From: a virus
Lineage: Duplodnaviria > Heunggongvirae > Uroviricota > Caudoviricetes
DNA: 64,000 nucleotides
Strand: one strand, 5' to 3'
IMG/VR virus record: IMGVR_UViG_3300033070_001123
The translations under genes and the position numbers were made by a program. The notes beneath the pieces are model-generated. The model did no database searches. It saw only the letters and a program-made list of their open reading frames with translations, and was not told where the DNA came from. This document shows, piece by piece, positions 6,301-64,000 of the stretch (position 1 is the stretch's first letter; every line of letters starts with the position of its first letter).

Positions 6301-9300
6301 CAATCCGCATTAACTGTAGCGGAATCGCCTTGTATATCCGTAAGCCAAGCAAGTCTGTTAGATATACAAGATACACCAATACCTCCAATAGAGCCAACGC
6401 CATATTGTCCTATGAATTCTTGAGAAATCAAATCGCTAGTTGCAAAGTTATAAAGTACAGACACGCCAACTGCATAGGTTTCTCCTATAACAACAACAAC
6501 TGGCGCAAATCTATCAAACGGATAATTCAATCCAGGACCAAAATAGTTCTTAAACGAAGTATCATAATCCATAAGATTTGAGCTATCAGTACATCTCAAG
6601 AATTTTCCTTTGAGGCCAGAAAGAACACCCTCAACTCTAAGTACACAAATTCTTTGCCTTATATCGCCAGTTACGCTATCATTAGCTCCGCTTGGACCGT
6701 CATTGGTATATGTAATAGCAATATCATATCCATCAGTTGTTGGAGTTACAGTTGTTGTTGTTTTGATATAGTTGCCAAGAGTTACTGATGAGAACTGCGA
6801 ATAAACCCATCTACCAAAACCGCTATAAGTATCGCTTTCTATACTAACCGCACTAGTATTCGCCAACAAAGAAGTAGCAAGATATCCGCAGCCAAAAAGG
6901 TCTATAGAGGTTGAAGGGTTTCCAAGATTGTTATTGACAAACAACGTGTTTATAGCACCATAAATAGCATTTGAAAGGTCTGTTAGAGTAGCATAAGAAG
7001 AAACGGTTAGACTCGTTATGGACAATGTTGAATTATCATTCTTGACAAAAGTTGCTCCAAACTTCTTTATGCCTCCGTCAAGAAGTAAGCCAAAATAAGC
7101 GTTCTTGATATTAGAATTTCCGTTTGGATCAAACTTAATCCTAAGCGCTCTAGACGTAGTATCTCCGATTGAAGAGAAGCTCAATATATCACTAACGTTT
7201 GACGTAAGCTTTTTGATAACAGGCTTAGCAACAGAAGCGTAATTGTTATCAACAGTATTTATGACAGGATCTGTAATGGCAACAAACGCATTCTGAGCGC
7301 CAGATGGAGGCGTCCAACCCGCTTCTGCTGTTCTTGTCCTTGTCGTTACGCTTGGCGAAACAATAAATGCAGCAGTTGAGTAAGAAAGAGTATATGGTTT
7401 TGTAGCTCCGACTCCGCAGCTAAATGAACCTCTAAATTCGTCATTGAAGTCTTTTGAAGCTGCTGGATACAAAACAGACAAAGACGCTAATGGAGTATTT
7501 GTCGAAGAATCAAGCTTGTATTTATAGATTGATTGAAGATCGGTTGTGATTACTTCAAACTGAGATGGACTTTCTTCATATCCGGCAGAAACCCACTGAT
7601 CCCATGTTTTTACAACGCCATTGACAAAGGCAAAATCCATAAAGCCAAGTCTTTGCGGCCATACATTGTTACTAAACTTGTCAAACTGACCAGTGTTAGT
7701 ACCGACAGAAATCCATCTAGATATGCAGAACCCACTATGCTCTGTATTAAGGTTATTTACAAACTCAATACCGCTCAAACCAACGCCTGTTGCTGTAGTA
7801 AAATTCCAGAAAGCTTTTTGGTAGTTTGTATTTATGTCTGCTATCGCCGTATTATTTCCTATCTTAAGGTTGTTTACAAGACCATAAGACCCTCCAAACT
7901 CAAACAGTCCAGAATTGATTCTTGTAGAACCCGCTGTGTAAGTGTTTGGCCTAAGTACATTGTTGACTATGGTTATGTCCGAAGAAGGCGGCGTAACAAC
8001 AAACAAACTCTTAGTTCCGCCTGCTAGCATTTCATTTGAATCAAATCTAATTGCAAAAACATCGTTTAGATTATTTGATCCGTCTTGCAAAACTGAACCA
8101 TAAATAGTAACGTATCTTGAGTTATATAGATTAATTGGTCCTGAAGAAGATATAGAAGAACCCTGCAAAGAGGCAAGGTGATCTATCCTACAGAAATTCA
8201 TAGAAAGTTTTTCTGCAAGACCACTAGTTCCTCCAAAGTTTATTGGAGAATCAGCCGGTGTCCTTACAGCAAAAACTTGAGCGCCATCAGCAAATCCATT
8301 TAGAGTTGCATGAAAACATCTATTAAGAACAAAGTTACAGCCTATGAAGTCATAACTCTTTATCTTTGTTGTTGATGTGTGGCATTGGTTGAAATATACA
8401 CCAGTTACAAAATGCGAAGTCGTTACGGCTTGATAAAGATTTCTAAACAAGCAACCTGAGAAAGTTATATTACTTGCGTTTGTTGTTGCAGAAGCTGGTG
8501 ATTTTATTACACATCCTATAAGATTAGAAGTATTATCGCTTCCCTGCTCAAGACCCCCTGGGTCTCCTGTAACATTAGCAGACGCTCCAAACTGAATATC
8601 CTGGAAATTAATATTGTATGCAGTTGCAGACAATTCAAACAAAGCTGTTGGAGAACTTCTACTAAAAGAACCGTTCTTTGCAACAATTCTTGGCTTCTGC
8701 GTTGAATACGCTGTTGAAGCCCTAATTAAAATATTTGGCTTACTTATTGTTACTTTTCCATTAAGAGGGAAATTCAAATTACCAGAACCACTATATCCTG
8801 GCAAAAGCTCAATAATGGCCTTGCCGTTGGTTCTGTTTGAGTTTATCCAAGACACAGCGGCGTCTATCGTTTGGAAAGTATTTGAAGGAGGAGTAAGCTG
8901 TTCTGGGACAACTTGCAACAAGACCCAATTATTAGAATTGTTAGTTGGATAAGAGTCTATTGTTGGATTAGAAACAGTAACGGTTGTAGAAACCGCAGAG
9001 CTAACTGCTCCATTGTGCCATATCTTTAGCGTTATTGTAAACGGATTACCGTTATTATTGTGATAATAAGTGTATGCAGCATTAATACCTCTCTGTTTAC
9101 TGGATAGAGAAGTCTTTCTATGAGGGCTTCCGTCAGCGTTATAATCGCTATCAACTCTTGGATCAAAGACCATTGTTCTTGAAATAACAGAAGTAGGAGG
9201 GTTGTTGTCTCCAAAATCCCACTCAAATATACAATCTTGAGCATCAACACCGTTGAAGTATGAATTTGTTGCATCAACATGAACAGTAAACGGAACATCA

Positions 9301-27969: not shown

Positions 27970-28376
27970 GTGATATCTTCTTGAAAAATCCAGTTTGCGC
28001 TATCTGCGGCTCAAAAAGCGTATCCAAAACAAATAGGCACATCTTTTATCTCATAGACTGCAAAGACTGCGAGCATGCCTATACTTTGATAGAAGAGAAA
28101 AGCCTAAGGAAGTTTACCAAAGAGAACTCTCTTGAGTACAGCTTCTGTCCATATTCAGATATTATGAAAAAGCTTCGCAATGAACAGTTTGAAGTTCAAC
28201 TTCGCTACGGAGATTACAACAATCATCTCTGCCACTACTTTTCAGAGAAAAGCTTGAGAAGGTTCCTATCAAACCTCGGTGTTGACTTCAATCTTCAAAT
28301 AGAAGACAAAACAGCTACGTTTACCATTCTTCTTCCTCGTCGCCGTCAGCAAGAAGCTCGTCAATGTCTTCCTTGA
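27966..28376 (+). CDS. Zinc-ribbon protein (136 aa), translationally coupled to the nucleotidyltransferase gene.
   Basis: CAICGS...CKDCEH. A 4-nt ATGA overlap with 27358..27969. Confidence 0.4.
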   Translation: MSDIFLKNPVCAICGSKSVSKTNRHIFYLIDCKDCEHAYTLIEEKSLRKFTKENSLEYSFCPYSDIMKKLRNEQFEVQLRYGDYNNHLCHYFSEKSLRRFLSNLGVDFNLQIEDKTATFTILLPRRRQQEARQCLP

Positions 28377-28671
28377 GAACGTACATTTGTCGCCAGTCTA
28401 TATCTATAAAATCAGGATATTCGTCATAGATATAAGACAAAACTTCGTCATTGATGTAGATTGCTATATCTTCGCAAGTCATATAGGGAGAAGGCTCTTT
28501 GATTGGAACCCTAACCCTTCTTTCACAAAAGTATCCAATCAAAATGTTGGATACAGCGCCGCTTCGTTGTTTGCCGACAATTTCTAAAGGCTCTTGTTCA
28601 ACAAAATAATCCCTTATCAAAATCAAACTCGTAATAAACGTCTTTTGCCATTCCTCTCGGGTCTTACTCAT
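28321..28671 (-). CDS. Hypothetical acidic protein (116 aa).
   Basis: ORF only. It overlaps the previous gene convergently by 56 nt. Confidence 0.35.
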   Translation of the reverse strand: MSKTREEWQKTFITSLILIRDYFVEQEPLEIVGKQRSGAVSNILIGYFCERRVRVPIKEPSPYMTCEDIAIYINDEVLSYIYDEYPDFIDIDWRQMYVLKEDIDELLADGDEEEEW

Positions 28672-30572: not shown

Positions 30573-30601
30573 AATTAGTTTAAGATAAGACAAGCTCATC
30601 A

Positions 30602-30635
30602 CCCTCTGCACTCTTGTGTAGAGGGTTTTTGTTTT
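30602..30635 (+). terminator. Rho-independent terminator: 10-bp stem (ccctctgcac / gtgtagaggg, one G-U pair), loop tctt, followed by TTTTTGTTTT.
   Basis: Read directly. It lies 30 nt after the stop of 29796..30572. Confidence 0.7.
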
Positions 30636-31242
30636 GAAAGATTTCAATTTTGGAAGCAGGTTTCGGCACTCTAAAACTGTACCTTTTCATTGGGATAGGG
30701 GAGTTTGGAACGTTATCAGCTTTTTCCTCGCTACGCTCGGTGATACGTCTTTGCTTCGCAAATCCGTATCAGTATATAGAAGAGTATTTTGTAATGCGCT
30801 ATAACAACTTAATTGCGCTATTGCGCTGCGCAACAACCTTTTCAGCCGCCAACGCATCTCTAAAAGAGAAGCGAAAGCGACTGAATCCGCCGAAGCGGTT
30901 ACTAAGTTGATCTTTTAAGGTCGGCGTTAAGACTTAGTTCTCATTCAGTCAGGCCGTCTTGTTTTCGCCTACGTCAACAAGTGAAAAGGCAAAGCCTGTT
31001 GAGCAGCTATCCCTTGCGGGATTCCAAGACAATGCTGTAGAAGTCGGAATTCTCAGCAAAGACCGCTCTTTTGGAGCGTAACCCCCTTTACAACAGAGGC
31101 CAAAGAGGGGAAACCTATTCGAGAAGAAAGAAGAGTCTCGAATACTCTTGTTCATTCGCCTTCTGCGTTCCGACTACAGAAGGCTGCTTATCGTTCAATT
31201 CACTCTTTCGGAATATACAAGCGAACTCGGCCAGTTTTTCAC

Positions 31243-31271
31243 CAAAGAAAACCCCCGCTGCTCGGCGGGGG
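31243..31271 (-). terminator. Rho-independent terminator: stem cccccgc/gcggggg, loop tgctcg, followed on the minus strand by TTTTCTTT.
   Basis: Read directly. It lies 7 nt after the stop of the acidic protein gene and ends the long minus-strand operon that starts near 37485. Confidence 0.65.
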
Positions 31272-31277
31272 TTCAAT

Positions 31278-31481
31278 TTAGAACTCGTCATCGTCGTCGT
31301 CAAGGTCGAAATCGTCGTCGTCTTCGTAATCTTCGTCATACTCTTCATCGTCGTCAAACTCTTCTTCATCTTCGTCTTCGATTTCGTCCTCGTCTTCGTC
31401 CTCATCGTCAAGATCAAGGTCGTCGTCTTCTTCTCTTTCAAACGAGTCCTCAATGTCTTCAAATTCCTTTTCTCGTCCCAT
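31278..31481 (-). CDS. Hyper-acidic small protein (67 aa, almost entirely D/E after residue 5). A candidate DNA mimic.
   Basis: MGREKEFEDIEDSFEREEDDDLDLDDEDEDEDEIEDEDEEEFDDDEEYDEDYEDDDDFDLDDDDDEF. An AAGGAG site lies 8 nt upstream of the ATG at 31481. Confidence 0.6.
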   Translation of the reverse strand: MGREKEFEDIEDSFEREEDDDLDLDDEDEDEDEIEDEDEEEFDDDEEYDEDYEDDDDFDLDDDDDEF

Positions 31482-31492
31482 TTCTTATCTCC

Positions 31493-32239
31493 TTATAGGA
31501 ACATGCCCCTTTCCAGGCTAAAGACTTCTTTCTCAATATTGCTGATCGCAATATTGTTTAAGTGTTCAAAATGGCTTGTTCTGAAAACCCTGCCGTTTTT
31601 CCTCTGCAAAAAACCCTTCCAGAAAGCGATTCTGCCTTCGGTCCAGGTCTTGTTGTCAATAAAAGAAAACTCTTTGCGAACCATTGCGGTTAGTCCAAAG
31701 AATGTTTCGACAGGAGTTGAGGCGATTCTTAATAGATCAATATCAACAATGAGATTCGCCTCATAATCTGCTTCAGGAGGGTTCTTGTCATGTTTTGTCC
31801 ACATAACAAGATCGTGAATTCTTCCGGCTCTTTCGGCTGAGAATCCCATACTAACAAGATCTTCAAGCGCATACCAGGCACTTTCTTCTTCGTTTGTCGT
31901 CGTCTTCGGGTTTAGGCGATAAATTGAATCGTGATAGAACCACGCAAGCAAAACGTCATCAATTGAGCCATCAGAGCAATCGCAATCGCTTTCAATTGAA
32001 AGGATATCTTTTACTCCTTCGATAACATGGTTAAAGTCATGGTATCGTCTGTTGATAATAGGAGATTCAGAAACAGGAGTTGCATACTTTGCAACAAGGC
32101 TGTTGAAATTTGTTCTGGTTTGTACAAGACCAGAAAGACTTGCTCTTGCGTTGATAGCTTTGTCGTAAATGTAGAAGAGGTAATCAATTCCCATATCAGG
32201 AGTGAGCCTCTTGTCTGCAATCTTTGTGAAATCTCTCAT
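31493..32239 (-). CDS. Putative HD-superfamily phosphohydrolase-like protein (weak assignment).
   Basis: Several H and HD dipeptides in HD-domain-like spacing (RRYHDFNHV, FYHDSIY, RIHDLVMWTKHD). No full motif match could be verified. Confidence 0.35.
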   Translation of the reverse strand: MRDFTKIADKRLTPDMGIDYLFYIYDKAINARASLSGLVQTRTNFNSLVAKYATPVSESPIINRRYHDFNHVIEGVKDILSIESDCDCSDGSIDDVLLAWFYHDSIYRLNPKTTTNEEESAWYALEDLVSMGFSAERAGRIHDLVMWTKHDKNPPEADYEANLIVDIDLLRIASTPVETFFGLTAMVRKEFSFIDNKTWTEGRIAFWKGFLQRKNGRVFRTSHFEHLNNIAISNIEKEVFSLERGMFL

Positions 32240-32748
32240 TTCTTCGCCTTCCCTTCAAGAGCAATTGCGACATGCTCAGGAACGTATTTCCTTATCTCTT
32301 TCTGCCATCCGTCATAGCCAATCAAGCTTTTCACAAAACTGCTTGAAACAATCGAAAGATCATGCGGCGGTTGCAACATGACTGTTTCGACGGCAACGCC
32401 TCTATCTAAAGCCATTCTACGGTTGATTTCAGCCATTGTTGACTCAACGGAGAAATCTTCGGCATTTCGAACGCCTCTCAAGAGATGAGTTGCTTTTTCT
32501 TGTTTCACGAAATCAACCAGGTAGTTCGGACCAATTGCCATTACCTTGACAGTTGGAGGAACACAAATCCTGGTCATTTCGGTTCTCTCTTCAACAGAAA
32601 AGAGATACCTGCCAACTTTGTTGGGGTTTACCGCAATACAAACGACAAGTTCTTCAAAAAGTCGAGTTCCCTGGTTGATCAGCCAGAGATGACCCGCAGT
32701 AATAGGGTCAAGGCTTGCCGCATAGATTGCTTTGGGTCTCATGCCCAA
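32236..32748 (-). CDS. coaD: Phosphopantetheine adenylyltransferase (CoaD-like cytidylyltransferase).
   Basis: AIYAASLDPITAGHLWLI matches CoaD AIYPGTFDPITNGH. LLRGVRNAEDFSVE matches LIRGLR..DFEYE. ISSSFVKSL matches ISSS.VKE. Confidence 0.8.
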   Translation of the reverse strand: MGMRPKAIYAASLDPITAGHLWLINQGTRLFEELVVCIAVNPNKVGRYLFSVEERTEMTRICVPPTVKVMAIGPNYLVDFVKQEKATHLLRGVRNAEDFSVESTMAEINRRMALDRGVAVETVMLQPPHDLSIVSSSFVKSLIGYDGWQKEIRKYVPEHVAIALEGKAKK

Positions 32749-47034: not shown

Positions 47035-50000
47035 TTACACGACTCTTCTGTGTCTCAAAGCTCTAAAGAAGGGGTAGCCGTCACTCGTCATGAGGCCCGG
47101 CTTAATTACTAAGCCAGGATTTTCTTCTTTCATCTTTTTCATCAAAAGAGTCCCAACACCCTGCCTTCGGTATTTTGGAACAACCTCAATCATGCTAATA
47201 TGCAACTCATTGTCAAATATGTTGTAGCTCAGTTGTCCAACAAGATCTTTCGTTTGCGTATCGTAGGCTCGTATTACCATGTCTGATTGCCCATGATGAT
47301 ACCCGATACACTCTGAATCCTCAACCTCTATGTTACTCTTGATAGGCTCTGCGTTTCTCTGGGTCTCGTCCGGCGAAAACTCGCTTGCTAGTTTACATAA
47401 ATCATACCAACCGCTTGCTCTTCGTTTCGTTTTTCCTTTGAGCGCTTCCTTCTTTTTACGAGCAATCCCCTCAAGAGTCCAAAGTATCGTCGGGTAGCGA
47501 GACCTTTCTTGTTTCTTGTTGAAGTATTTACTTATCCATCTTGGTATTCTGATTTGGGTTTGCATGAGAAGTTTTTCAACATCTTCTATAACAGCGTCGT
47601 CAAGACAGTATGGAAGATTTTCCGCTCTAGCAGAATCAGCGGCTTCGTCTTGAATCTGCTGCTTTTCGTCCTCCCAATCGCTAAGCGCTTTTTGATACTC
47701 TTCAGGATCTTCAAAATCATCTTCCTGAGGTTCGTCTGGAAACTCTAAATAAGAATCATCATAGTGGTCAAAGAATTTCTCGTTGTTTTCTTGCCTCTTG
47801 TTATATATTTGCGCAATCTGAAACTGAGCATCAAGAACCTGAGCCATAAACCTTCTTTGATTTTTCTCGTCAAGCTGATCAAAGCTTCTAAGCTTGCTGT
47901 AATCAAACTCTTTAGCTTGACTCATATTGTAATAAGCCTTTTCAATAGTTTTCTGTTCAACAGCTTGCGGGCTTGTATATCTTTCCCATCCTTGCCATTT
48001 ATCTTTGAGAGCTTGATCTGTCTCTCTTTGAACTGCCGCCGCTGCCTCTGGTATATAGTCTTTGAGATATATCTTTTTGTTCTCGGGCGACATTCTATCG
48101 AACTGTTCTTTCTTCATAACGCTATGCTTTGCAGACTTATGCGCCCAATTCAATGCCATTGCTTTCATTTCTTTTTCGTTAATAAGACCTTGATTGAGTT
48201 TTTGTATATCAGAATCAACAGCGGCTCTGGCTAATACCTTCGAGACATGATGCGTTTGATATCCGCCGTCATTACGGTATCCTCTATCATTGTTGAGCTT
48301 TTTGTAAACAGCTTCATATGCGTCTTGATATTCCCATTTTGTTAGAGATACTGGTAAGCCGTAGCCCTCTGCTCCCTTATATATGGCTCTTTCAAGATCG
48401 TCGTCCATGCTTCCATAGCTAAGATCGCTATAATCAAAGTCGTCCATACCCTCAATAGCAGCGCCTTTGAGAGTTCTCATCCACTCGCCAATCATTGCTT
48501 TTAGATTGTCGCTTGGGTCTACGTTTCCAGTCTTTGGACCGTTGCCATAAATTTGTCTAAAGGTCCAACTATTAGGGCTAACTTCCATTGTTACATAAGG
48601 TACATTAGAAGGATCTCGAAGCGAAAAGATCCTGGTATTACCTTTCATAACGTCATCGCAATAACTTCCGACGCAATTGTGAGCAACAAGATGTTGAACT
48701 ACATAAGAATGTATTCCTTCAACTTCTATGTTATAAACCTTACCTGTAAATTGTATTTTTTCATGGCAAATAGGTTTAACTAAAACTTCTTTTTTATGTA
48801 TCCAAAAGTTTGATTTTCTAGAATCTCTTTTTATGCTTGCGTCAGCACCCTCAAGAGTGTATGCTGTTTTTCTATTTCTTTTAGTATTATCTTTTTTTGA
48901 TAAAGAAGGAAACCCTCCCAATCTAAGAGAGATCTCAGTCATTTGAAGAGCAAGCTCTTTGGATGTTTGATGTAAAACATTTCTGCCTTTGCATCCATCT
49001 CCATCAAATATTCCTTGCCAAATATAAATAACTTTTTCATTAGGCAAATTAAGGAATTGCGAAGGTATTTTTTTGTTAGAACATCCACATCCAAACATTT
49101 CACTGAACCATCTGCACAGCATTCTGCTGTTTACTAAAACAACTATTCCCCCAAATTCTTCCGAATCTTTTCTTATGCGCGGCGAAAAGCCATTTTTTGA
49201 GAAAAAATCAAAAATTCTATTAACATATTCTGTTTCTGTTTTTGAAAGAGCAAAACTCAGTTTGTCTCCGTCATTTGAGCCTTCCGCTATGTATATCCCA
49301 AAAATCCATAATAAATCTTTATCTACATTATATATCTTATTGCCTTTAGATTCGTTTATAATACAATGATCTGGAATTTTTATTTCATTTATATCTTCAA
49401 ATTCTTTTGGAACTCTTGATAAAATATACGAATCTTTTAGCGATTCTATAGGTTGCCACTCAATAATGTGTTTTTCCTCAGGTTTATTATTTCTACATAA
49501 AGATCCACACGTATGAAGTCTACAAGGCTTATTTCCTTTGTGATTCGATTTCAGAGATAAAAATAAATGTTCGGGAGTAACATATATAGGATCTGTACCT
49601 AATTTAGTTTGTAATTTAATAATTTCACCAACATAATCTCTTTCGAATTTTTCTGTTACTTTTTGAAATGTTCCATTTTCAACAAGAACTAAATCTCCTA
49701 TTTCTATTTCTTCTATAGGAATAAACCCTTGTTTAGTTCTTATTAAAGAACCAGCAGCAAAACAATGACCCATCTTACCGCCTTCGGTTCTTAGATTGTT
49801 CTTTGTTACAACTTGCTTGATTGTCCAACCGGCCCAATCAGGTCTACTCCATTGAGGACCAAATACAACGTCTTCTCTTTTTTCGCCGTAATACTCAAGA
49901 CCTTCGCCTTCTCCAGAAATAACATCATGCCAGTTTTCAGCAAACTGATCTGCTTGGTCAAGAGTTAGTCCGGCAAGGTTGGTGTTTGCATTTGTAACGC

Positions 50001-50532
50001 CGTATTCATTGATAACGATGGCTTTTTCTTCTGGCGTCTGAGCGGCTTGAAAAGCTTGTCTCGCAGGAAGAACGCCTCTTACATACCAGTCAAATATGCT
50101 TTGAGCAATATCTGGAATCAAAGTAAAATTGACATTTCCTCGGCCAGGAATTGAATATCCGTCACCAGTAAGAGCCATGCCGTCAGGTTTCTTCTTAATC
50201 TGATATTCATTTCTTGCTTTTCTTAGAGATACAAGTAGCCACTTCTGAAATTCAAGGTTCTGAAACCTATTGGCAAGCTGAAGCTCTTGAGGAGTATTTG
50301 GGTTTTGCTTAGGTTGTTGGTTCTGCGGCCTAATCTTGTCCATAAGCAAAGCTGACGGAGTTTGAGGAAACTTGCGCAGATAACCAATAACCTGTTGTTT
50401 TAGTTCTGGGTTTGTTATCGTTGTAACAAAGCTTACCGTTTCTTCAGGAACTCCAATTCGCGCAAGAAAAGCCTCAACAGAGTTATCGCCTGCTGCGGAT
50501 TCTTTTATGATTTGACCATAATACCAGTTCAT
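47035..50532 (-). CDS. Intein-containing protein (1165 aa). The 802-aa extein has an MNWY N-terminus and a C-terminal GNAT-like acetyltransferase motif.
   Basis: Residues 257-619 are an intein: N-terminal CFAAGSLIRT, TPEH block B, LAGLIDADG motifs (IFGIYIAEGS and IWQGIFDGDGC), C-terminal VYNIEVEG...VVQHLVAHN followed by Cys as the +1 residue. The C-terminal extein has VPKYRRQGVGTLLMKKM, a GNAT motif A. Confidence 0.7.
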   Translation of the reverse strand: MNWYYGQIIKESAAGDNSVEAFLARIGVPEETVSFVTTITNPELKQQVIGYLRKFPQTPSALLMDKIRPQNQQPKQNPNTPQELQLANRFQNLEFQKWLLVSLRKARNEYQIKKKPDGMALTGDGYSIPGRGNVNFTLIPDIAQSIFDWYVRGVLPARQAFQAAQTPEEKAIVINEYGVTNANTNLAGLTLDQADQFAENWHDVISGEGEGLEYYGEKREDVVFGPQWSRPDWAGWTIKQVVTKNNLRTEGGKMGHCFAAGSLIRTKQGFIPIEEIEIGDLVLVENGTFQKVTEKFERDYVGEIIKLQTKLGTDPIYVTPEHLFLSLKSNHKGNKPCRLHTCGSLCRNNKPEEKHIIEWQPIESLKDSYILSRVPKEFEDINEIKIPDHCIINESKGNKIYNVDKDLLWIFGIYIAEGSNDGDKLSFALSKTETEYVNRIFDFFSKNGFSPRIRKDSEEFGGIVVLVNSRMLCRWFSEMFGCGCSNKKIPSQFLNLPNEKVIYIWQGIFDGDGCKGRNVLHQTSKELALQMTEISLRLGGFPSLSKKDNTKRNRKTAYTLEGADASIKRDSRKSNFWIHKKEVLVKPICHEKIQFTGKVYNIEVEGIHSYVVQHLVAHNCVGSYCDDVMKGNTRIFSLRDPSNVPYVTMEVSPNSWTFRQIYGNGPKTGNVDPSDNLKAMIGEWMRTLKGAAIEGMDDFDYSDLSYGSMDDDLERAIYKGAEGYGLPVSLTKWEYQDAYEAVYKKLNNDRGYRNDGGYQTHHVSKVLARAAVDSDIQKLNQGLINEKEMKAMALNWAHKSAKHSVMKKEQFDRMSPENKKIYLKDYIPEAAAAVQRETDQALKDKWQGWERYTSPQAVEQKTIEKAYYNMSQAKEFDYSKLRSFDQLDEKNQRRFMAQVLDAQFQIAQIYNKRQENNEKFFDHYDDSYLEFPDEPQEDDFEDPEEYQKALSDWEDEKQQIQDEAADSARAENLPYCLDDAVIEDVEKLLMQTQIRIPRWISKYFNKKQERSRYPTILWTLEGIARKKKEALKGKTKRRASGWYDLCKLASEFSPDETQRNAEPIKSNIEVEDSECIGYHHGQSDMVIRAYDTQTKDLVGQLSYNIFDNELHISMIEVVPKYRRQGVGTLLMKKMKEENPGLVIKPGLMTSDGYPFFRALRHRRVV
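48676..49764 (-). mobile_element. Intein with a LAGLIDADG homing-endonuclease domain (363 aa) inside 47035..50532.
   Basis: I mapped the boundaries from codon positions. The Cys codon aca/TGT is at 49762-49764. The Asn codon att/AAT is at 48676-48678, followed by the Cys codon gca/TGC at 48673-48675. Confidence 0.65.
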
Positions 50533-57041: not shown

Positions 57042-57924
57042 TGCGATTCTTGTACTCTCTGCCAAGCCATCTCAAAGCTGCGGGTAACTGTTTAGGCCAT
57101 ACATACCTATATAGCTCGCTCTTCATAACTTGTACACTCTTATTACCAAAACCTCTTATCAAAGCTTTCTTCGCTTCGTCAAAGGTCCATCTTCCGCCAT
57201 ACCTATCAACAAAGCTCTGTACAAACTTGTTAGGGTCAAACTCCTCGTCTACCCTAAACACTCTTCTTGCTGCCAAGGTTGATTCATGATTGCTGTTGCC
57301 CTTGAACTCGTAACCCTTGTTGTTCGCTAAGAACTGTTGTCTTGATACATTGGATAACTGACCGTTACGGTTGTCTCTTAGCCATACTCTGATAATACGG
57401 TTTGGATTCAAGTGTCCAACGAATAAAGCTTGGCTCTCGCCAAATCCTAAAAGAGTATTTGCAAGCTCTGGTCTTTCGCTCTGAGAGATGGGCGGAATGT
57501 TGCGGTCTACCGCTCGTTGCCTTGCTCGAACTCTTTCTTCTTCTCTTTTTGCTTTGCTGTTGCCAAAGTATTCAGCCATCTGCCCTTGAACGGTATAAGA
57601 ACCGCCTGGCCAAACGGGAGCCTCAAGCTCGTTCATGTTCGCATGAAACTCAACTATCCAAGCTCCAAACTCCGAAGCTTTCTTTGGGTCTGTTGTTACA
57701 AATAACCCTGTAGGATTGTTGTCGGCTTCATATGAGTAAACCCTACCAACTCTTGACTTTCCAGATAAGCCGTAGCGACATGCGGCTATGGCGTCCTCTA
57801 AATCCCTAAAACCATGAAAGACCCTTACTACGTCGTTCTTCTGTAGCGCCGGTCTTTCTTCGGGACTCCTGCCGGGAGGCAAGGTGAGCCTGTCTGCAAA
57901 CTTAGCAAGGTCGTACCAACTCAT
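57031..57924 (-). CDS. Hypothetical protein (297 aa), N-terminus MSWYDLAKFA. Has a VFHGFRD segment.
   Basis: ATG verified at 57924. ATGA overlap with the downstream gene. Confidence 0.5.
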   Translation of the reverse strand: MSWYDLAKFADRLTLPPGRSPEERPALQKNDVVRVFHGFRDLEDAIAACRYGLSGKSRVGRVYSYEADNNPTGLFVTTDPKKASEFGAWIVEFHANMNELEAPVWPGGSYTVQGQMAEYFGNSKAKREEERVRARQRAVDRNIPPISQSERPELANTLLGFGESQALFVGHLNPNRIIRVWLRDNRNGQLSNVSRQQFLANNKGYEFKGNSNHESTLAARRVFRVDEEFDPNKFVQSFVDRYGGRWTFDEAKKALIRGFGNKSVQVMKSELYRYVWPKQLPAALRWLGREYKNRNVV

Positions 57925-58547
57925 GAGGACCGTCCTTCCCTCATAATCTTTTGAACGAAGTTCATGACTTGAGAGTTTGGAGGCATGCTCTTGAGCTTAT
58001 TGTACTCTTCGTGAGAGCCGATCCAATACCATATAAACTGAGATTGAAACTTAACAGCTAATGCTCTGTAACGACCGCCAACCTGAGCAGACCAAACTTC
58101 TAGCTTTCCCCTATTTTCGGGTAATGGCTTAATGCCAACTTGTTGAGGATTGGAAAGAAGCGTTTGATATTTTTGAGAGGCTAGCTGTTGAACTTGAACT
58201 GGCAATAAGGATAGCGAGTCTCTGAAGCTTTTGGTTTGCCAATGCCCAGTATCAAAGCCTGCAAATTTTACCAAACCATGTTCATGAGAGTTTGATTCTA
58301 GGTTTTTCTTAAAAGCGTCTGGATCTTCTTCAAGTGTATTAAGGTCTTTGGTTAGACTCTTTCCAGGTATTCCTGTTGGTTTGCATTTTAGACAGTATAT
58401 AGGAATGCGATCTTTTCTTGCTTTTTCTATATCAGATTCTTTTGCTCTCATTACATCGCCACAATGGTCGCAACGATAACGAAAAAATCTACTACCAGGG
58501 ATAGGTAGTAGATTCATTTTATAGTTTTCAGAAACTATGATTTTCAT
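57921..58547 (-). CDS. Hypothetical protein (208 aa) with a Cys4 zinc ribbon (CDHCGD...CLKC).
   Basis: ORF with 4-nt overlaps at both ends. Confidence 0.45.
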   Translation of the reverse strand: MKIIVSENYKMNLLPIPGSRFFRYRCDHCGDVMRAKESDIEKARKDRIPIYCLKCKPTGIPGKSLTKDLNTLEEDPDAFKKNLESNSHEHGLVKFAGFDTGHWQTKSFRDSLSLLPVQVQQLASQKYQTLLSNPQQVGIKPLPENRGKLEVWSAQVGGRYRALAVKFQSQFIWYWIGSHEEYNKLKSMPPNSQVMNFVQKIMREGRSS

Positions 58548-59141
58548 GCCGCTTCCTGTTGCCCGTCATAAAACATTTCAACAATACGCTTTACATTATG
58601 AACTTCTATACCTAATAGTTTTGATATTTGAGAAGACGATAGGTTTGGATTTTTGTTTTTGAAACCTATAATCTTATCAACTATTTTCTTGAAGTTAGAG
58701 TCTTTTCTAGATAAGAACTTTTCTCTTATTTCTGCTCGCTCATTTGGATTGAGAGCTTTCATAAGATATGGAAGAAGGGTTTGATTAGCTACATTAAAAT
58801 GAGCAGCAATTTGATTGATGGTATAGCCCTTTCTGTAAAGATCAGCAGCTTTCTTTCCTTTATTTTCGTCTAGGGCGGGGCCGTTATACGCATTATTTCC
58901 AGGACCAAACCGTTCTGGTTGAAACCCTTTTCTTTTGGATAAAAAGTTTCTTAGAATATTGGGACCGATATTCATTTGTCTTGATATTTGCTGAAGAGAT
59001 ACGCCTTTTTGATAGAGATACGCCTTTTTGATATAGATCCCAAGCTTGATCAACAATTGATTTATCATTTTGCAATTCGTCGGTTCTGAGACCAGTCCAT
59101 TGACCGTCCGCAAACTTTGCCATTTCATACCAGTTAGACAT
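58544..59141 (-). pseudogene. Gene for a protein with three helix-turn-helix-like repeats (N-terminus MSNWYEMAKFA), split into two frames (58893..59153 and 58544..59128) by a 19-bp tandem duplication.
   Basis: Perfect direct repeat gagatacgcctttttgata at 58996-59014 and 59015-59033. 19 nt is not a multiple of three. Both ORFs contain LYQKGVSL, one encoded by each copy. The ATG at 59141 is verified, with a GGAGG site 6 nt upstream. Confidence 0.55.
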
Positions 59142-59563: not shown

Positions 59564-60255
59564 GAGGTATCCTTTCGTTGCGCGAAATTTTATTAGATGT
59601 TTGGTTTGAAGAATGCGACTAGAGGAGCAAGAGGCGGGATATACAGAACAATTAGCGGGGAGCAATCCAAGGTATCCTTCTTGCGCGAATTTTAAGTGAC
59701 GGTATACCCTTTAGAAATTTACTCTACGGGTGAGCGAGATAAGGTATCCTTTTATTCCTGAATTTTAAGTGACGGCATGCCCTTCATTATAATGAACCTT
59801 GGCATGACAGTTATGACAGAGTATATCGCATTTGGCAATTTCTGCTAAAACTCTTTTCATTCCATACTTACAGAGGTATGTAACATCTCCGTCCTTTGTT
59901 GATGGATCTCTATGATGAAAAGATAAACATGCAGGATGCTTTTCTCCGCAATGCATACATGGATGAGTTCTTTTATACTCCCAACAGTATTCTCTACATT
60001 GTTGATAAATCTTTTTCTTGTATGAAGTCCTATACTCTTTACTCTTTGCGTTTTTAATTCTATTCTTCTCTTTGTTTGTCATAATTATCCCTCGTATACC
60101 CCAAAGCTTTCAGGTATATTATCGGCAAAGAGTCTTTCCGTAGCTGCGCATGCCTTAGGCTACCTCCGCAAACTAGGTATCTTTTAGATTAGAGAAGGGG
60201 CGGGCTGGGGGGTGGGGTATCCTTTCCAACAAAATTAAATCGTTATGAGTGAGGA
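59564..60255. repeat. Block of degenerate direct repeats (AGGTATCCTT...GCGCGAA(A)TTTTA...GTGACGG) that flanks and overlaps the HNH gene.
   Basis: Copies start near 59568, 59671, 59744, 60174 and 60222. Units B and C reproduce the 3' end of the HNH gene. Confidence 0.5.
59765..60082 (-). CDS. Small HNH endonuclease (105 aa).
   Basis: CMHCGEK...HHRDP...LCHNCHAKVH. Confidence 0.65.
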   Translation of the reverse strand: MTNKEKNRIKNAKSKEYRTSYKKKIYQQCREYCWEYKRTHPCMHCGEKHPACLSFHHRDPSTKDGDVTYLCKYGMKRVLAEIAKCDILCHNCHAKVHYNEGHAVT

Positions 60256-60429
60256 GTCTTCCACTGCGCCATTATTAAATAGCAAACCCCAACCAACATG
60301 GCTGGGGGTTGCTGAGACAATCAAATCTGTGTGAGTCTTTGGTGGTGGGAGTTTAGTTCTTCATGGCTCGCTCCTTTGTTAAGACCCTTCGTTCCGTTGT
60401 CTGACTCTGTTGTTCTTTGCGACCGAAGT

Positions 60430-60723
60430 TTAGTTACGGTCGATGGTCGTCTTCATGGGGCCTTGCCCTTTGAGGCTGAGGTAGCGGAGGGCCGCTGCGT
60501 CCTCTCCCGCCTCTCGGACGATTCGAGCGGCCTTGCGGCAAGCCTCTCTGCTGCCCTTGGCGACGAGGGCCTTGCCGTTGTTGTGGACCTTGAGGGCGAC
60601 GGCCTTGGCGTCGTCGTAGGAGAGTTCGGGGTTGATGCGCTGAACGAGGGAGATGACGAATTCGAGGCTGTGGGTCTTGCTGTTCTTGAGGAAGGTTCGG
60701 AATGGCTTGCGAGCGGTTTTCAT
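60430..60723 (-). CDS. Small hypothetical protein (97 aa) in the G+C-rich array.
   Basis: I chose the ATG at 60723, which has an AGGAAG/AAAGGA ribosome-binding site. The TAA stop lies inside a GAAGTTTAGTT motif copy. The longer ORF-track version 60430..60912 runs across a motif copy. Confidence 0.4.
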   Translation of the reverse strand: MKTARKPFRTFLKNSKTHSLEFVISLVQRINPELSYDDAKAVALKVHNNGKALVAKGSREACRKAARIVREAGEDAAALRYLSLKGQGPMKTTIDRN

Positions 60724-60763
60724 GGGCTGTCCTTTCTTCCTTACAAGCGACGGCAGGAAGTTT

Positions 60764-61006
60764 AGTTCCCCCGTTTCTTCTTCCGCTGCCTCTCCTTGCG
60801 GTTGTGCTTCTTCTCTTGCTGTTCGGCCCAGTTCTGGATGGCTTGGGCGTCGCGGTCTGCGTCGGTCTGATACTTCATGCGGCTCTGGCTCCTCGGCGGT
60901 TGCTGAGTTCATTCCAAAGGGTCAACATGAGTTCGGCGTCACCCTCCATCTTGGCGACCTCAAAGGCGTCCATCAATTGACCGAATGACATTTCGCTGAT
61001 TTTCAT
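60764..61006 (-). CDS. Two tiny coupled ORFs, about 43 aa (ATG 61006) and about 38 aa, with a GCATGAAG overlap. Low confidence.
   Basis: Hand-translated as MKISEMSFGQLMDAFEVAKMEGDAELMLTLWNELSNRRGARAA and MKYQTDADRDAQAIQNWAEQQEKKHNRKERQRKKKRGN. The second stop TAA lies inside motif copy #3. Confidence 0.25.
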
Positions 61007-61048
61007 GGGTAAGAGTCCTTTCTTACCTAACTGGTAAGGTTGGGAAGT

Positions 61049-61276
61049 TTAGTTCTTCCCGGCGACGGTTGCGAGGGTCTTGCGGAGTTTCTTGGGGATG
61101 TTCACTCGGGTCTTGTCGTTGCCGACGAAGCGGAGAATCTTGTCCACCATCTTCTGGGCCTTGTCGGGTCCAGCGACTCGGACGATATCCCCAACGTCGA
61201 TGTAAACACCGAGTTGGACGTTGGCTGACTTGCGGGGCTTGGACTTCTTGGACTTGGGCTTGGTTGCGTTGCTCAT
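61049..61276 (-). CDS. Small basic protein (75 aa).
   Basis: ATG at 61276 is 18 nt after motif copy #5. The TAA stop is inside motif copy #4. Confidence 0.5.
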   Translation of the reverse strand: MSNATKPKSKKSKPRKSANVQLGVYIDVGDIVRVAGPDKAQKMVDKILRFVGNDKTRVNIPKKLRKTLATVAGKN

Positions 61277-61314
61277 GGCTTTCTCTCTTTCGCGAGAAGT
61301 TTAGTTCTCGGTTC

Positions 61315-61614
61315 TTAAGACTCCTTGACGATTCGGTAGCCCCAGTTCGGGACTTGCTGAATCACGAACCCTTCGGCGACGTTGGGAAGCGGGAAGAATT
61401 CGCCCTGATACCACTCTCCCTCTCTGACGCATCCGCCGTTGTAGCGGATTGCGCCGTACTTGGGAGGGATTGAGGTGGAGGAGCCGATGTAGCCCTTGAA
61501 AGGGTAAGGCGTTCCAAGACCGTCCTTAGCGACATGCTTGGCCTTCTTCTCGCAAGTCTTGGCGTCCCAAGTCTCGGCCTTGTGCTGGTAGAATTCGGTC
61601 TTCTGCTTTGCCAT
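61315..61614 (-). CDS. Small hypothetical protein (99 aa).
   Basis: ORF with an AAGAG ribosome-binding site. It is bracketed by motif copies #6 and #5. Confidence 0.5.
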   Translation of the reverse strand: MAKQKTEFYQHKAETWDAKTCEKKAKHVAKDGLGTPYPFKGYIGSSTSIPPKYGAIRYNGGCVREGEWYQGEFFPLPNVAEGFVIQQVPNWGYRIVKES

Positions 61615-61800
61615 GCTCTTGTTATTTAAGAGAGAAGTTTAGTTTCGGCGTTCGTAAGGCAGCGGGCGTTCACTCATAACGATTAGGCGTTGTTAAGTAA
61701 CAAGTGCGGCTCGGGCGACTAACTCCCGTCCGCTGCTGCCGCCAGTCTCGCGGCAACCTTGCTTTTTCCGTTGACTTTCCCTTTTGCGCGGAAAGTTTAG

Positions 61801-62046
61801 TTACGAATACCTACGGCTCTGGTCGAGTCTCTTGAGGTTTGCCCAAACTCCTTGCGGCGTTGATGAGGGGACTTCTGCGACGACTCCAACATGGGTTTGA
61901 ACGCCCCAGACTTTGCGCTCGTAACCGATGGCTCGTTGGGTTGCTTCTTCGAGCGTACAGGCGACGGCGTTCTGAATCCACTCTCCCTCGATGATTGTTC
62001 CGTCGCTGCTCTCTTTGCGGATGTTGATGAGGGAGAAGTTTGCCAT
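61801..62046 (-). CDS. Small hypothetical protein (81 aa).
   Basis: ATG at 62046 is 19 nt after motif copy #8. The stop abuts motif copy #7. Confidence 0.45.
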   Translation of the reverse strand: MANFSLINIRKESSDGTIIEGEWIQNAVACTLEEATQRAIGYERKVWGVQTHVGVVAEVPSSTPQGVWANLKRLDQSRRYS

Positions 62047-62070
62047 GCTATTTAGGTCATGGCAGGAAGT

Positions 62071-62379
62071 TTAGTTCCGCGAAGTGATGTCCTTCAGTTC
62101 GATGTTGATGGTTCGGTCCTCCTTATGAACCACCACAAGGTTCTGGCGGCTCGTCTTGGGGTCATGGGCGAACCCAACGACTTCCCAACCGTTGTCATTG
62201 AAGTAGAGGGGACGCTCGCCTCCTGCGACAATGTAGCGGAATCCAACGATGTCGCCCGCCTTGAGGGAAGTTGGGAAGGGCGGCTCTCGGAGGATGGGGA
62301 GAATGAGGTTTCCCATTCCCTTGCTGGCGCGCTTCGATTCGACTCGGATTTTGGCGGCTTCTTGTTCAGACAGAGGCAT
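62071..62379 (-). CDS. Small hypothetical protein (102 aa).
   Basis: ORF. Its TAA stop is the TAA inside motif copy #8. Confidence 0.5.
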   Translation of the reverse strand: MPLSEQEAAKIRVESKRASKGMGNLILPILREPPFPTSLKAGDIVGFRYIVAGGERPLYFNDNGWEVVGFAHDPKTSRQNLVVVHKEDRTINIELKDITSRN

Positions 62380-62554
62380 GGGCTTCCTCCTGTTGCTTCT
62401 TAAGTTCCTCGATATACCGCTGATGAGCGGTCTTACCCGTCAAGCGAAACAAAACTTGACAAGTAATGCAACGGACTTCGGCCTTGCATGTTGGGTCGAG
62501 TACCTCAAAGGGTTCTCTGCAATCCTCGCAAGTTCTTGTTTGGATTGCTTCCAT
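62366..62554 (-). CDS. Small zinc-ribbon protein (about 62 aa: CEDC...CKAEVRCITC).
   Basis: I chose the ATG at 62554. The ORF-track start at 62563 is a TTG. It is preceded by motif copy #9. Confidence 0.45.
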   Translation of the reverse strand: MEAIQTRTCEDCREPFEVLDPTCKAEVRCITCQVLFRLTGKTAHQRYIEELKKQQEEAHASV

Positions 62555-62578
62555 GCCTAACAAGGGTAGGCAGGAAGT

Positions 62579-62806
62579 TTAGTTCTCCTCCAAGTATTGA
62601 GCGGCGGAAGCGACTCTCTTGCGTGCTTCTTCCCAAACTTGAGCGGAAGTTCCGTCGAGTTCGGTCTTGGCTTTCTCGGAGATGAGTTTGCAAGCCATTG
62701 CGGTTGCTTTGAGCATGCGCTCGCCTCCGTGTTCTTCCATGAACACAACCATTGACCATACAAGGTCATCGTCGGAGAGTTTGGGCTTTTGATTGTCTTG
62801 CGGCAT
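62579..62806 (-). CDS. Small acidic hypothetical protein (75 aa).
   Basis: ATG at 62806 has a GAGGG ribosome-binding site and lies inside the 37-bp perfect repeat. The TAA stop is inside motif copy #9. Confidence 0.5.
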   Translation of the reverse strand: MPQDNQKPKLSDDDLVWSMVVFMEEHGGERMLKATAMACKLISEKAKTELDGTSAQVWEEARKRVASAAQYLEEN

Positions 62807-62835
62807 ACCAATCCCTCTTTGCGCGGAAGTTTAGT

Positions 62836-62994
62836 TTACTTCTGCGTTTCCTCGGCGTAGTTGAAACCTTCCATCCATGCCTTGCGCTCTTCGGACCCTT
62901 CGGCGTAAAGGCAGGACGTTGAGGGCTTCTTATCAAAGAAAGCGTTGTAGCCCTCGTCCCAAAGGTTACTGTATTGTTCTCTGTTGAGCGGCAT
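62836..62994 (-). CDS. Small hypothetical protein (52 aa). Not in the ORF track because it is under 60 aa.
   Basis: Hand-translated as MPLNREQYSNLWDEGYNAFFDKKPSTSCLYAEGSEERKAWMEGFNYAEETQK. Its start context is identical to that of 62579..62806 (37-bp repeat). The TAA stop is inside motif copy #10. Confidence 0.35.
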   Translation of the reverse strand: MPLNREQYSNLWDEGYNAFFDKKPSTSCLYAEGSEERKAWMEGFNYAEETQK

Positions 62995-63022
62995 ACCAAT
63001 CCCTCTTTGCGCGGAAGTTTAG

Positions 63023-63244
63023 TTACGACTTAAGCGTAACCCAACCGCTGTCAAACGCTGGCGGAGTCTTGAGCGGCTCGCCTCGCTCTTTGCGGAGTTG
63101 TTCGCTGTGCGCCCATGAACCCTTGTAGGGCGTTTGGGGAGTTGGACGCTTCGGCTTGGGCTGGCGATTCCTTCGGAGATTCGCCTCGATGTTGGCGATG
63201 ATGACTTTGCCATGTTCAACGGTAGCGGCGAAGGGGTCGAGCAT
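63023..63244 (-). CDS. Small hypothetical protein (73 aa).
   Basis: ATG verified at 63244. The stop abuts motif copy #11. Confidence 0.5.
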   Translation of the reverse strand: MLDPFAATVEHGKVIIANIEANLRRNRQPKPKRPTPQTPYKGSWAHSEQLRKERGEPLKTPPAFDSGWVTLKS

Positions 63245-63480
63245 GTTAGTTCTTAATGTTTGGGAAGTTTAGTTTCGCATAGACCTGGTTCCTCGGCGAA
63301 CCTGATTCACTCATAACGATTACGCTGCGTTGGCCCGAGAGCCAACCTTGCGGCTGGCGGATTGCTCGTCCCTTACGTCTCGGCATGGTTCAGAAAGTTT
63401 AGTTCTTAAACCGCCAAAGGGCCTTGCGGCCCTTATTGGGGGATTACCGATTGTCGGCTCCCTGCTTGGCGGCTGGAGGA

Positions 63481-63834
63481 TTACTTCTTCTTCTTGGGCT
63501 TGACCTCGATGACGTTGCCGCCGTTGGCGTTGGCGGCTCGAAGTTCGTTGACTTGGTTCTGGAGGGCAACCATGCCGCCCGCAACGCCCGCCATCCATTG
63601 GCGATTCATGGCGATGAGGGATTCGGTCGTCCGAACGATGGTTCGGTCGCCCAATTGTTCGGCCGCGGCGGCGCGCTTGCGAAGTTCGTCCTCGATGTCC
63701 TTGAGCGTCATGCCGGGGAGTTGGACGGGGACGTTGCCGCCCGCCATTGCCGCGATTTCGGCTTGCTGCGCTTCCATGAGGGCTTGGGCGGGGTTCTGCA
63801 TGAGTTTGGCGAGTTGGTTGCGGTCGAGAGGCAT
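63481..63834 (-). CDS. Small hypothetical protein (117 aa) with a Lys-rich C-terminus.
   Basis: ORF with an AAAGGA ribosome-binding site. The hairpin agggcc-ttgc-ggccct (63418-63433) lies just downstream on the minus strand. Confidence 0.5.
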   Translation of the reverse strand: MPLDRNQLAKLMQNPAQALMEAQQAEIAAMAGGNVPVQLPGMTLKDIEDELRKRAAAAEQLGDRTIVRTTESLIAMNRQWMAGVAGGMVALQNQVNELRAANANGGNVIEVKPKKKK

Positions 63835-64000
63835 GATTCGGTCCTTTCAGTTAGGCGAAGGGTTCATTCCCTTCATGCCTATCTGTTCTGCGCCGAAAGT
63901 TTAGTTTCGGAATTGAACAACCGAAACCGATTGAAGTTTGGGCTGGTTCTGAAGTTTAGTTCTTCAGATTGAAGCGGTCGAATGGACGACGGCGTTGCCG

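Follow-up and report, generated by a model that had tools for sequence, protein, structure and literature searches.

Results

A hyper-acidic gene between an HD-like gene and a structured RNA candidate

We investigated a small gene encoding a hyper-acidic protein in a 64,000-nucleotide stretch of DNA from a virus of the Caudoviricetes (IMG/VR record IMGVR_UViG_3300033070_001123); the whole stretch is hereafter termed the window. The open reading frame (ORF), which occupies positions 31278..31481 (-) with its stop codon included, starts with ATG and comprises 67 codons, and its translated product is MGREKEFEDIEDSFEREEDDDLDLDDEDEDEDEIEDEDEEEFDDDEEYDEDYEDDDDFDLDDDDDEF. Upstream of it lies a gene for a 248-amino-acid HD-superfamily phosphohydrolase-like protein (31493..32239 (-)), its conserved partner, and directly 3′ of it on the same strand lies a candidate structured non-coding RNA of approximately 585 nt (30662..31246 (-)). 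Asp (28 residues) and Glu (21 residues) account for 49 of the 67 residues of the product (73% D/E), giving a net charge of −46, and GAC, GAA, GAT, and GAG make up 49 of its 67 codons. Lys and Arg occur three times in total, all within residues 1–16, and residues 17–67 contain no Lys, Arg, or His. Among the 391 ORFs of at least 40 amino acids in the window, the next most acidic has a D/E content of 23%, and no other 40-residue stretch with at least 50% D/E was found in any frame of the window.

The first-pass annotation of this locus had reported the acidic ORF with its GAN-type codons, a perfect Shine-Dalgarno (SD) sequence, and a terminator of its own, and all three were confirmed. The SD sequence AAGGAG (31489..31494 (-)) is located 7 nt 5′ of the start codon, where it overlaps the stop codon TAA (31495–31493) of the HD-like gene. 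Of the 46 gene starts in the window, only 6 show an SD match of at least 6 nt, and AAGGAG precedes the orthologue in all lineages examined. The predicted intrinsic terminator (31241..31274 (-)), a G+C-rich hairpin with a U-tract, begins 3 nt past the stop codon; its stem (31274–31249) consists of 10 bp including seven G-C pairs and is followed by UUUUCUUU. The stem differs among relatives through compensatory substitutions, and the hairpin begins 0–7 nt past the stop codon in 10 of 10 loci. The acidic ORF had also been described as the last gene of an operon starting with an ABC-type ATPase gene. It is the last gene ahead of the terminator, but no minus-strand terminator was predicted upstream of the ATPase gene, where co-directional genes run on, so the start of the operon was not established. 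To judge from these signals, the acidic ORF is apparently efficiently translated.

ORFs rich in Lys and Thr or in Arg occupy other frames across the acidic ORF. We regarded them as by-products, because a GAN repeat has no stop codons in those frames; only the acidic frame retains the ATG, the SD sequence, and the stop codon in all lineages. Asp is encoded by GAC at 21 of 28 positions, compared with 47% in the genes of the window (p = 0.004). Synonymous differences at D/E codons were rarer in the acidic ORF than in seven neighbouring genes (2/44 vs 50/189, p = 0.001), and likewise in a second comparison with neighbouring genes (3/46 vs 48/185, p = 0.003). The GAC preference and the suppressed synonymous change are compatible with codon selection in a highly expressed gene; alternatively, the latter could reflect an RNA-level constraint or a recombination tract common with the nearly identical downstream region. 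The RNA-structure z-score of the region was −2.8 with the strong terminator hairpin included, and it is uninformative for the ORF itself since the hairpin probably drives it.

Composition and position of the acidic ORF are conserved across phage lineages

Since the correction for composition bias blinds homology tools to the acidic protein, orthologues were traced by synteny, via the upstream HD-like gene and via the downstream RNA motif. An identical acidic protein was present on four public contigs, and nine diverged lineages (given locus numbers such as L010 where they need to be told apart) were recovered on viral contigs of 39–506 kb, seven of which exceed 200 kb. Where measured, the HD proteins of these lineages were approximately 50–92% identical to that of the window, and that of the ninth lineage (L050) was visibly more divergent. 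Each of the nine lineages carries a small acidic ORF directly 3′ of the HD gene, with a length of 50–73 amino acids, a D/E content of 58–74%, and a net charge of −29 to −47. It follows the HD gene after an 11-nt gap in the window clade and several others and overlaps it by 10 nt in L010, and in these lineages too it is preceded by AAGGAG and followed by a hairpin terminator 0–7 nt past the stop codon.

Sequence similarity of the acidic ORF between lineages was weak; composition and position were conserved. A recognisable common N-terminal pattern, with the core YDDDED-x-LE, was shared only by L020 and L006. Between close relatives, insertions and deletions in the acidic ORF were multiples of three, and amino-acid replacements were mostly exchanges of Asp and Glu. 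We rejected the possibility that the ORF is a non-gene by-product of GAN-rich DNA, as its ATG, SD sequence, frame, and stop codon are conserved across nine lineages with diverged DNA. On these sequence comparisons, we concluded that the acidic ORF is a real gene under selection for composition.

Outside this lineage, a scan of IMG/VR for DDDDDEF followed by a stop codon yielded no stand-alone polyacid. Among GenBank phages there was no close relative, the best match being a 28%-identical HD protein of Rhodococcus phage Weasels2 with unrelated neighbours, and both the HD protein and the RNA motif were absent from the 185,579 bacterial and archaeal species genomes searched.

One locus differed in orientation. 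On the 333-kb contig IMGVR_UViG_3300033067_001661 (L005), the acidic ORF and the RNA segment (approximately 6700–7900) are inverted relative to the window and to L004. One breakpoint falls within the 3′ end of the HD gene and the other within the gene for peptide deformylase, and both genes are split. No matching inverted repeats flank the equivalent segment in the window, and the inversion therefore probably reflects either misassembly or a rearranged variant.

The acidic protein is predicted to be disordered

Database searches with the acidic protein were negative. A phmmer search produced 1142 word-sharing candidates, none of which scored; no Pfam-A family was matched at E ≤ 0.01, the Ocr and ArdA models included; PHROGs gave no match; and PADLOC, NCBIfam, and PDB gave nothing except one chance-level PDB match (E = 1.1). 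AlphaFold2 with single-sequence input returned a mean predicted local distance difference test (pLDDT) score of 58 and a predicted template modelling score (pTM) of 0.14, and DSSP assigned no helices or strands. A hydrophobic core does not appear possible, because 73% D/E leaves too few residues to form one. Thus, the acidic protein is predicted to be intrinsically disordered.

The hydrophobic residues (Phe, Ile, Leu, and Tyr) had been noted earlier as periodic. They are never adjacent to each other and are more evenly dispersed than expected by chance (the coefficient of variation of the gaps was 0.46 vs 0.79 in shuffles, P ~0.02), but a strict period was not found. Uninterrupted D/E runs reach a maximum of 10 residues and do not exceed 9 in all lineages but one. 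The N-terminal segment EKEFEDIEDSFERE (residues 4–17) has a helical hydrophobic moment above that of shuffles (P = 0.02), as have residues 8–21 of the L010 protein (P < 0.001); the best-scoring amphipathic window was N-terminal in L023 and L025 as well. At the other end, the protein of the window terminates in DFDLDDDDDEF. A C-terminus of poly-Asp followed by Phe, Leu, or Ile was observed in six of the nine lineages (DEF, DEF, EDF, DDL, and DDI), and the remaining three end in FD, FLDTDE, and EFYLGDDEDE. None of these recurrent features, namely the N-terminal segment, the dispersed anchor residues, and the hydrophobic tip, is present in every lineage.

Similar termini were seen on other phage proteins. 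DDDDDEF-COOH occurs in loci L027–L044 on unrelated proteins of 41–460 amino acids, among them an AAA-like ATPase and a protein with a zinc ribbon. In addition, a conserved 116-amino-acid protein (window 28321–28671 (-); L010 8550–8900) has the tails ...ADGDEEEEW and ...SDGDDSDSF, respectively, which are like those of the single-stranded DNA-binding protein (SSB) and T7 gp2.5. Given DDDDDEF on unrelated proteins and DGDEEEEW in the window, acidic tails that end in an aromatic residue may be an interaction motif that recurs among phages.

The adjacent gene for pantetheine-phosphate adenylyltransferase (CoaD) and the AcpH-like character of the HD gene prompted us to consider an acyl-carrier-protein-like carrier. 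The acidic protein of the window contains a single Ser (EDSFE), and those of L020, L022, and L023 contain none; CoaD is missing in L010 and L023. A role as a carrier protein, which calls for a conserved Ser in a D-S-L-type motif as the site of phosphopantetheine attachment, was excluded because the serine is not conserved.

A candidate structured RNA lies downstream of the acidic ORF

The interval between the acidic ORF and the next gene measures 650–730 nt in all lineages and contains invariant blocks and no convincing ORFs; in the window, it corresponds to the ORF-poor region 30573–31277. The RNA candidate within it begins with a UUUGGUG motif after the U-tract of the terminator. RNAalifold analysis of an alignment of eight lineages predicted 77 base pairs, 38 of which showed compensatory double changes. 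In the core, 92.4% of the cells were paired compared with 23–47% when the partners were slid, and 16 pairs showed double changes compared with 7.0 ± 1.7 in shuffles, none of 500 shuffles reaching 16. G-U pairs assigned the RNA to the strand of the acidic ORF. The predicted partner of the conserved UUUGGU is an AAACC, likewise conserved, approximately 585 nt downstream (31246–30662), and this outer helix varies through G-U changes only.

The candidate matched no model of Rfam 15 and no tRNA or tmRNA model, and in the searches made its motif was restricted to this phage lineage. The corresponding regions are 6963–7612 in L004, 5929–6656 in L010, 4939–5668 in L020, 3155–3866 in L006, 4951–5681 in L023, 4929–5640 in L025, and 4155–4882 in L007. 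The adjacency of the acidic ORF and the RNA was invariant, and it is solely from this adjacency that any possible functional link between them is inferred. The RNA candidate may be the more novel feature of the locus.

In six lineages, the RNA and the gene for peptide deformylase flank a conserved ORF of 61–68 amino acids rich in Asn, Lys, and Gln (L006 3867–4055, L007 4883–5089, L020 5669–5863, L023 5682–5879, L025 5641–5826, and L050 2747–2938). Its product follows the pattern ...FRFN.SKIN..K.N.PS.IDWN.L...SLWGFV..QQN..KK, and the window, L004, and L010 lack this ORF.

Genomic neighbourhood

Judged by its gene content, the window represents a region for nucleotide metabolism, replication, and transcription in the genome of a large phage. 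Genes are present for ribonucleotide reductase, dUTPase, ThyX, peptide deformylase, and CoaD, together with UvrD-like and SNF2 helicases, AAA+ proteins, and a factor of the sigma-70 family; the window also encodes a macro-domain protein, a protein with an intein, and an ORF of 3421 amino acids. The conserved block has the order ABC ATPase (PtuA/AAA_15/AAA_21-like), a protein of ~190 amino acids, a protein of ~310 amino acids, CoaD, the HD-like protein, the polyacid ORF, and the terminator. CoaD (32236–32748 (-)) was identified by the TIGR01510 equivalog model with 127.9 bits against a cutoff of 103.3, and it is absent from the cassettes of L010 and L023. In L019, a LAGLIDADG-like ORF (1033–1797) is inserted between the ATPase gene and the next cassette gene.

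The HD-like protein corresponds to phrog_19425 ("phosphohydrolase") at 1.7e-18, and its H...HD...D residues are invariant. Its AlphaFold2 model had a pLDDT of 90.7, and in a fold search the nearest structures were class I cyclic-nucleotide phosphodiesterases and generic HD hydrolases, with weak template modelling scores of ~0.5. The 192-amino-acid, 315-amino-acid, and HD proteins have homologues only within this phage lineage, and for that reason the cassette neighbours suggest no function for the acidic protein. Net charges of the operon proteins range from −13 to +9, that of the HD neighbour being −8. The most basic neighbour is an 82-amino-acid protein with a net charge of +9 and a lysine-rich tail, whose equivalent in L020 and L022 looks different.

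Several features elsewhere in the window were also recorded. A 1165-amino-acid ORF (47035–50532 (-)) contains Hint/intein, LAGLIDADG, PcfJ-like, and GNAT domains. An ORF with a ParE-like toxin domain (57921–58547 (-); PF24732, 1.7e-06) adjoins a helix-turn-helix (HTH)/resolvase-like gene at 58544–59128. Positions 60001–64000 have a G+C content of 53–54%, compared with ~40% elsewhere, a strongly negative AT skew, and ORFs of foreign-looking composition; this part could have been acquired or be mosaic, or it could be the end of a chimeric contig.

Discussion

Here, we described a conserved gene of a large-phage lineage whose product is almost entirely polyacidic. From the reality of this gene, its composition, its conservation, and the absence of a predicted fold, all documented above, we infer a mechanism for the product: the acidic protein would be a stoichiometric, disordered nucleic-acid charge mimic, or decoy, a reading that we hold tentatively and with somewhat less than even confidence. 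Nucleic-acid charge mimicry appears to be the most plausible mode of action. In this model, the flexible polyanion would bind one or several proteins of the host or the phage at their basic nucleic-acid-binding surfaces, candidate targets being RNA polymerase, nucleoid-associated proteins, SSB-partner pockets, and basic patches of the replisome. Bulk electrostatics and the hydrophobic anchor residues would combine in binding, and the bound polyanion would displace or exclude DNA or RNA; conceivable benefits are host takeover, replication control, or anti-defence. The decoy model is supported by the location of the gene in a replication, nucleotide-metabolism, and transcription module. The DNA-mimic proposal of the first-pass annotation is thus retained in part: charge mimicry is plausible for so extreme a polyanion, but a folded mimic of B-form DNA found no support.

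Known disordered polyanions provide precedents for such a mechanism. Residues 56–122 of Gp44 from Bacillus phage SPO1 form a disordered 67-residue segment with 57% D/E and no basic residues, which has been described as a flexible single-stranded DNA (ssDNA) mimic and binds the β/β′ subunits of RNA polymerase (PMC8208478). The acidic protein resembles this segment in being phage-encoded, 67 residues long, and predicted to be disordered, and it is more acidic (73% vs 57%). In Gp44 (27 kDa), however, a folded N-terminal domain that binds DNA precedes the segment and a C-terminal region that is required follows it, whereas the polyacid is essentially the whole of the acidic protein, which has no flanking folded DNA-binding domain and, beside the polyacid, an amphipathic segment of at most 14 residues. 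No sequence homology between the acidic protein and Gp44 was detectable.

The C-terminal region of delta (RpoE), a subunit of Firmicutes RNA polymerase, is likewise a polyanion that competes with nucleic acid on a nucleic-acid-binding enzyme. In Bacillus subtilis, this region is disordered and has a net charge of −47 (PMC7749165), and the acidic protein is like it in both disorder and charge (−46). Unlike the acidic protein, delta belongs to the host and is tethered through an N-terminal domain that is folded, and the two are not homologous. Among eukaryotic proteins, D/E-rich disordered chains have been described that act as DNA charge mimics on basic partners (PMC10987829, PMC8442969).

Several observations weigh against the decoy model. 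A survey of charges revealed no strongly basic partner for the acidic protein encoded in the conserved cassette. The AlphaFold2 run used a single sequence, and folding on binding is conceivable. The hydrophobic C-terminal tip is missing in three of the nine lineages, and the N-terminal helix signal was significant in only two clades. Poly-D/E nascent chains destabilise translating ribosomes (PMC12340396, citing Chadani 2017), which casts doubt on accumulation of the acidic protein to a high level. Furthermore, a generic decoy role leaves the invariant coupling to the HD gene and the downstream RNA unexplained.

The same composition and predicted disorder would fit a charge-shielding chaperone equally, that is, a polyanion that binds and solubilises basic phage proteins (DNA-condensing or packaged ones) and hands them to DNA, as acidic disordered histone chaperones and prothymosin-α act on histones. 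The aromatic residues scattered in the acidic runs resemble the anchors of the acidic intrinsically disordered regions (IDRs) of histone chaperones, which are themselves described as DNA charge mimics (PMC10987829), and the strong SD sequence and the codon bias suggest that the protein is made in stoichiometric amounts. Prothymosin-α, DSS1/Sem1, and the acidic IDRs of histone chaperones share with the acidic protein a small or modular D/E-rich disordered chain with interspersed aromatics. They differ from it in belonging to another domain of life, in lacking homology, and in having partners (histones, BRCA2, and the proteasome) that are absent from bacteria. We consider this alternative rather unlikely. 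The conserved cassette encodes no strongly basic protein, the maximum being the +9 of the 82-amino-acid neighbour, and the equivalent of that protein in L020 and L022 does not look the same.

The acidic C-terminus raises another alternative, in which the D-F-D-L-D5-E-F-COOH end acts as a free-standing mimic of an SSB tail that competes with host SSB for its partners or regulates the phage replisome. SSB-type tails, such as those of Escherichia coli SSB (SSB-Ct), T7 gp2.5, and T7 gp4, also consist of an acidic run with a C-terminal Phe. The importance of this arrangement is documented for T7 gp2.5, in which the acidic tail contacts the DNA polymerase at a basic patch and the C-terminal Phe is essential (PMC12339929 and references therein). 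The termini DEF, DEF, EDF, DDL, and DDI in most lineages, the recurrence of DDDDDEF-COOH on unrelated IMG/VR phage proteins, the ends ...DGDEEEEW of the protein at 28321–28671 of the window and ...DGDDSDSF of its L010 homologue, and the location within a replication module are in line with such a role. On the other hand, SSB-type tails are appendages of ~10–25 residues on OB-fold or helicase proteins, and no OB-fold ssDNA-binding domain was found in the acidic protein with Pfam, PHROG, or NCBIfam, in which it matched no family. The SSB-Ct signature is missing, notably the proline of the IPF tip, three lineages terminate in Asp or Glu, and a nine-residue tip does not need 50–70 residues of polyacid. 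We therefore regard an SSB-tail mimic as improbable.

It is also conceivable, with a slim chance of being correct, that translation of the poly-D/E stretch is itself the signal. In such a regulatory ORF, the 5′ arm of the terminator would be masked by a ribosome that reaches the stop codon, which would allow read-through into the RNA, whereas aborted translation would let the terminator form. Just as slight is the probability that the polyacid ORF and the ~585-nt RNA constitute one regulatory unit, a sensor of ribosome or Mg2+ status, possibly besides a function of the protein; translating more than 70% D/E would put the ribosome at risk, and only completion of the ORF would open the way into a large structured RNA not described before. 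The geometry suits this proposal: in each of the 10 loci the hairpin begins 0–7 nt past the stop codon, the U-tract directly adjoins the conserved UUUGGU, for which RNAalifold predicts pairing with the RNA's 3′ end, and the ORF and the RNA are invariably adjacent. Consecutive acidic residues can lead to intrinsic ribosome destabilisation (PMC12340396, citing Chadani 2017), and the suppressed synonymous change could be an RNA-level constraint. However, compact phage genomes commonly have terminators near stop codons, the leader ORFs known are much shorter than 50–73 codons, and no alternative anti-terminator structure was identified. With regard to an IRD-type (mgtL-like) sensing leader, in which an acidic nascent chain near the N-terminus is coupled to a downstream RNA switch or terminator, D/E runs and a terminator adjoining the stop codon occur at all loci, alongside the 50–73-codon length and conserved protein-level features. 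A sensor would need neither a conserved length nor dispersed hydrophobic residues, an N-terminal amphipathic segment, or a hydrophobic tip, and D/E runs that stay at 10 residues or fewer (9 or fewer in all lineages but one) look like avoidance of ribosome destabilisation.

The first-pass annotation had likened the composition to that of Ocr, ArdA-like anti-restriction proteins, and some anti-CRISPR proteins, which would make the acidic protein a folded B-form DNA mimic directed at blocking restriction-modification, BREX, or CRISPR effectors. T7 Ocr, ArdA, T7 gp5.9, AcrF2/AcrIIA4, and Ugi/p56 are indeed small and acidic, and they are phage- or plasmid-encoded competitors for DNA-binding sites. 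Ocr, ArdA, and the DNA-mimic anti-CRISPRs are folded proteins with ~25–35% acidic residues, whose carboxylates match the phosphates of B-DNA. Beyond net negative charge and phage origin, the acidic protein shares little with this group: its D/E content is 73%, a value that precludes a hydrophobic core, AlphaFold2 predicted neither helices nor strands, and none of the families in Pfam (Ocr and ArdA included), PADLOC, PHROG, NCBIfam, or PDB was matched. Its surroundings differ as well. The gene lies outside an early or leading-region anti-defence context, in a nucleotide-metabolism and replication module with an HD-like gene as its conserved partner rather than in an anti-restriction locus. An anti-CRISPR assignment is further disfavoured by the absence of an aca-type HTH regulator, or any HTH gene, next to the acidic ORF; in all lineages, its neighbours are the HD-like gene and the non-coding RNA. 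The comparison with Ocr, ArdA, and anti-CRISPRs consequently fails for want of a family match, a predicted fold, and an anti-defence context, and we consider a folded mimic very improbable. Equally remote is the idea of a sink for cations (Mg2+, Ca2+, or polyamines) or of a non-functional by-product of GAN-rich DNA, to which the extreme carboxylate density and the low-complexity DNA that keeps all frames open would lend themselves, since a sink needs no conserved N-terminal segment or hydrophobic C-terminal tip and a non-gene would not keep its ATG, SD sequence, frame, and stop codon in nine lineages with diverged DNA.

To our knowledge, and in the literature searched, a free-standing, fold-less protein family with 58–74% D/E in a large-phage lineage has not been described previously. 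Such polyanions are probably under-counted in phage genomes because they are invisible to homology searches. If the decoy model is true, the acidic protein would represent a minimal form of nucleic-acid mimicry, a free-standing polyanion of 50–73 residues kept by composition and not by sequence, and the concept of the DNA mimic would widen from folded proteins (Ocr, ArdA, and anti-CRISPRs) so as to include charge mimics that are disordered. Being very small and easy to synthesise, the protein would in addition be useful as a probe or inhibitor of nucleic-acid-binding proteins. Together, the HD phosphohydrolase-like gene, the polyacid ORF, and the large candidate structured RNA form an invariant, uncharacterised module of large, mostly huge phages.

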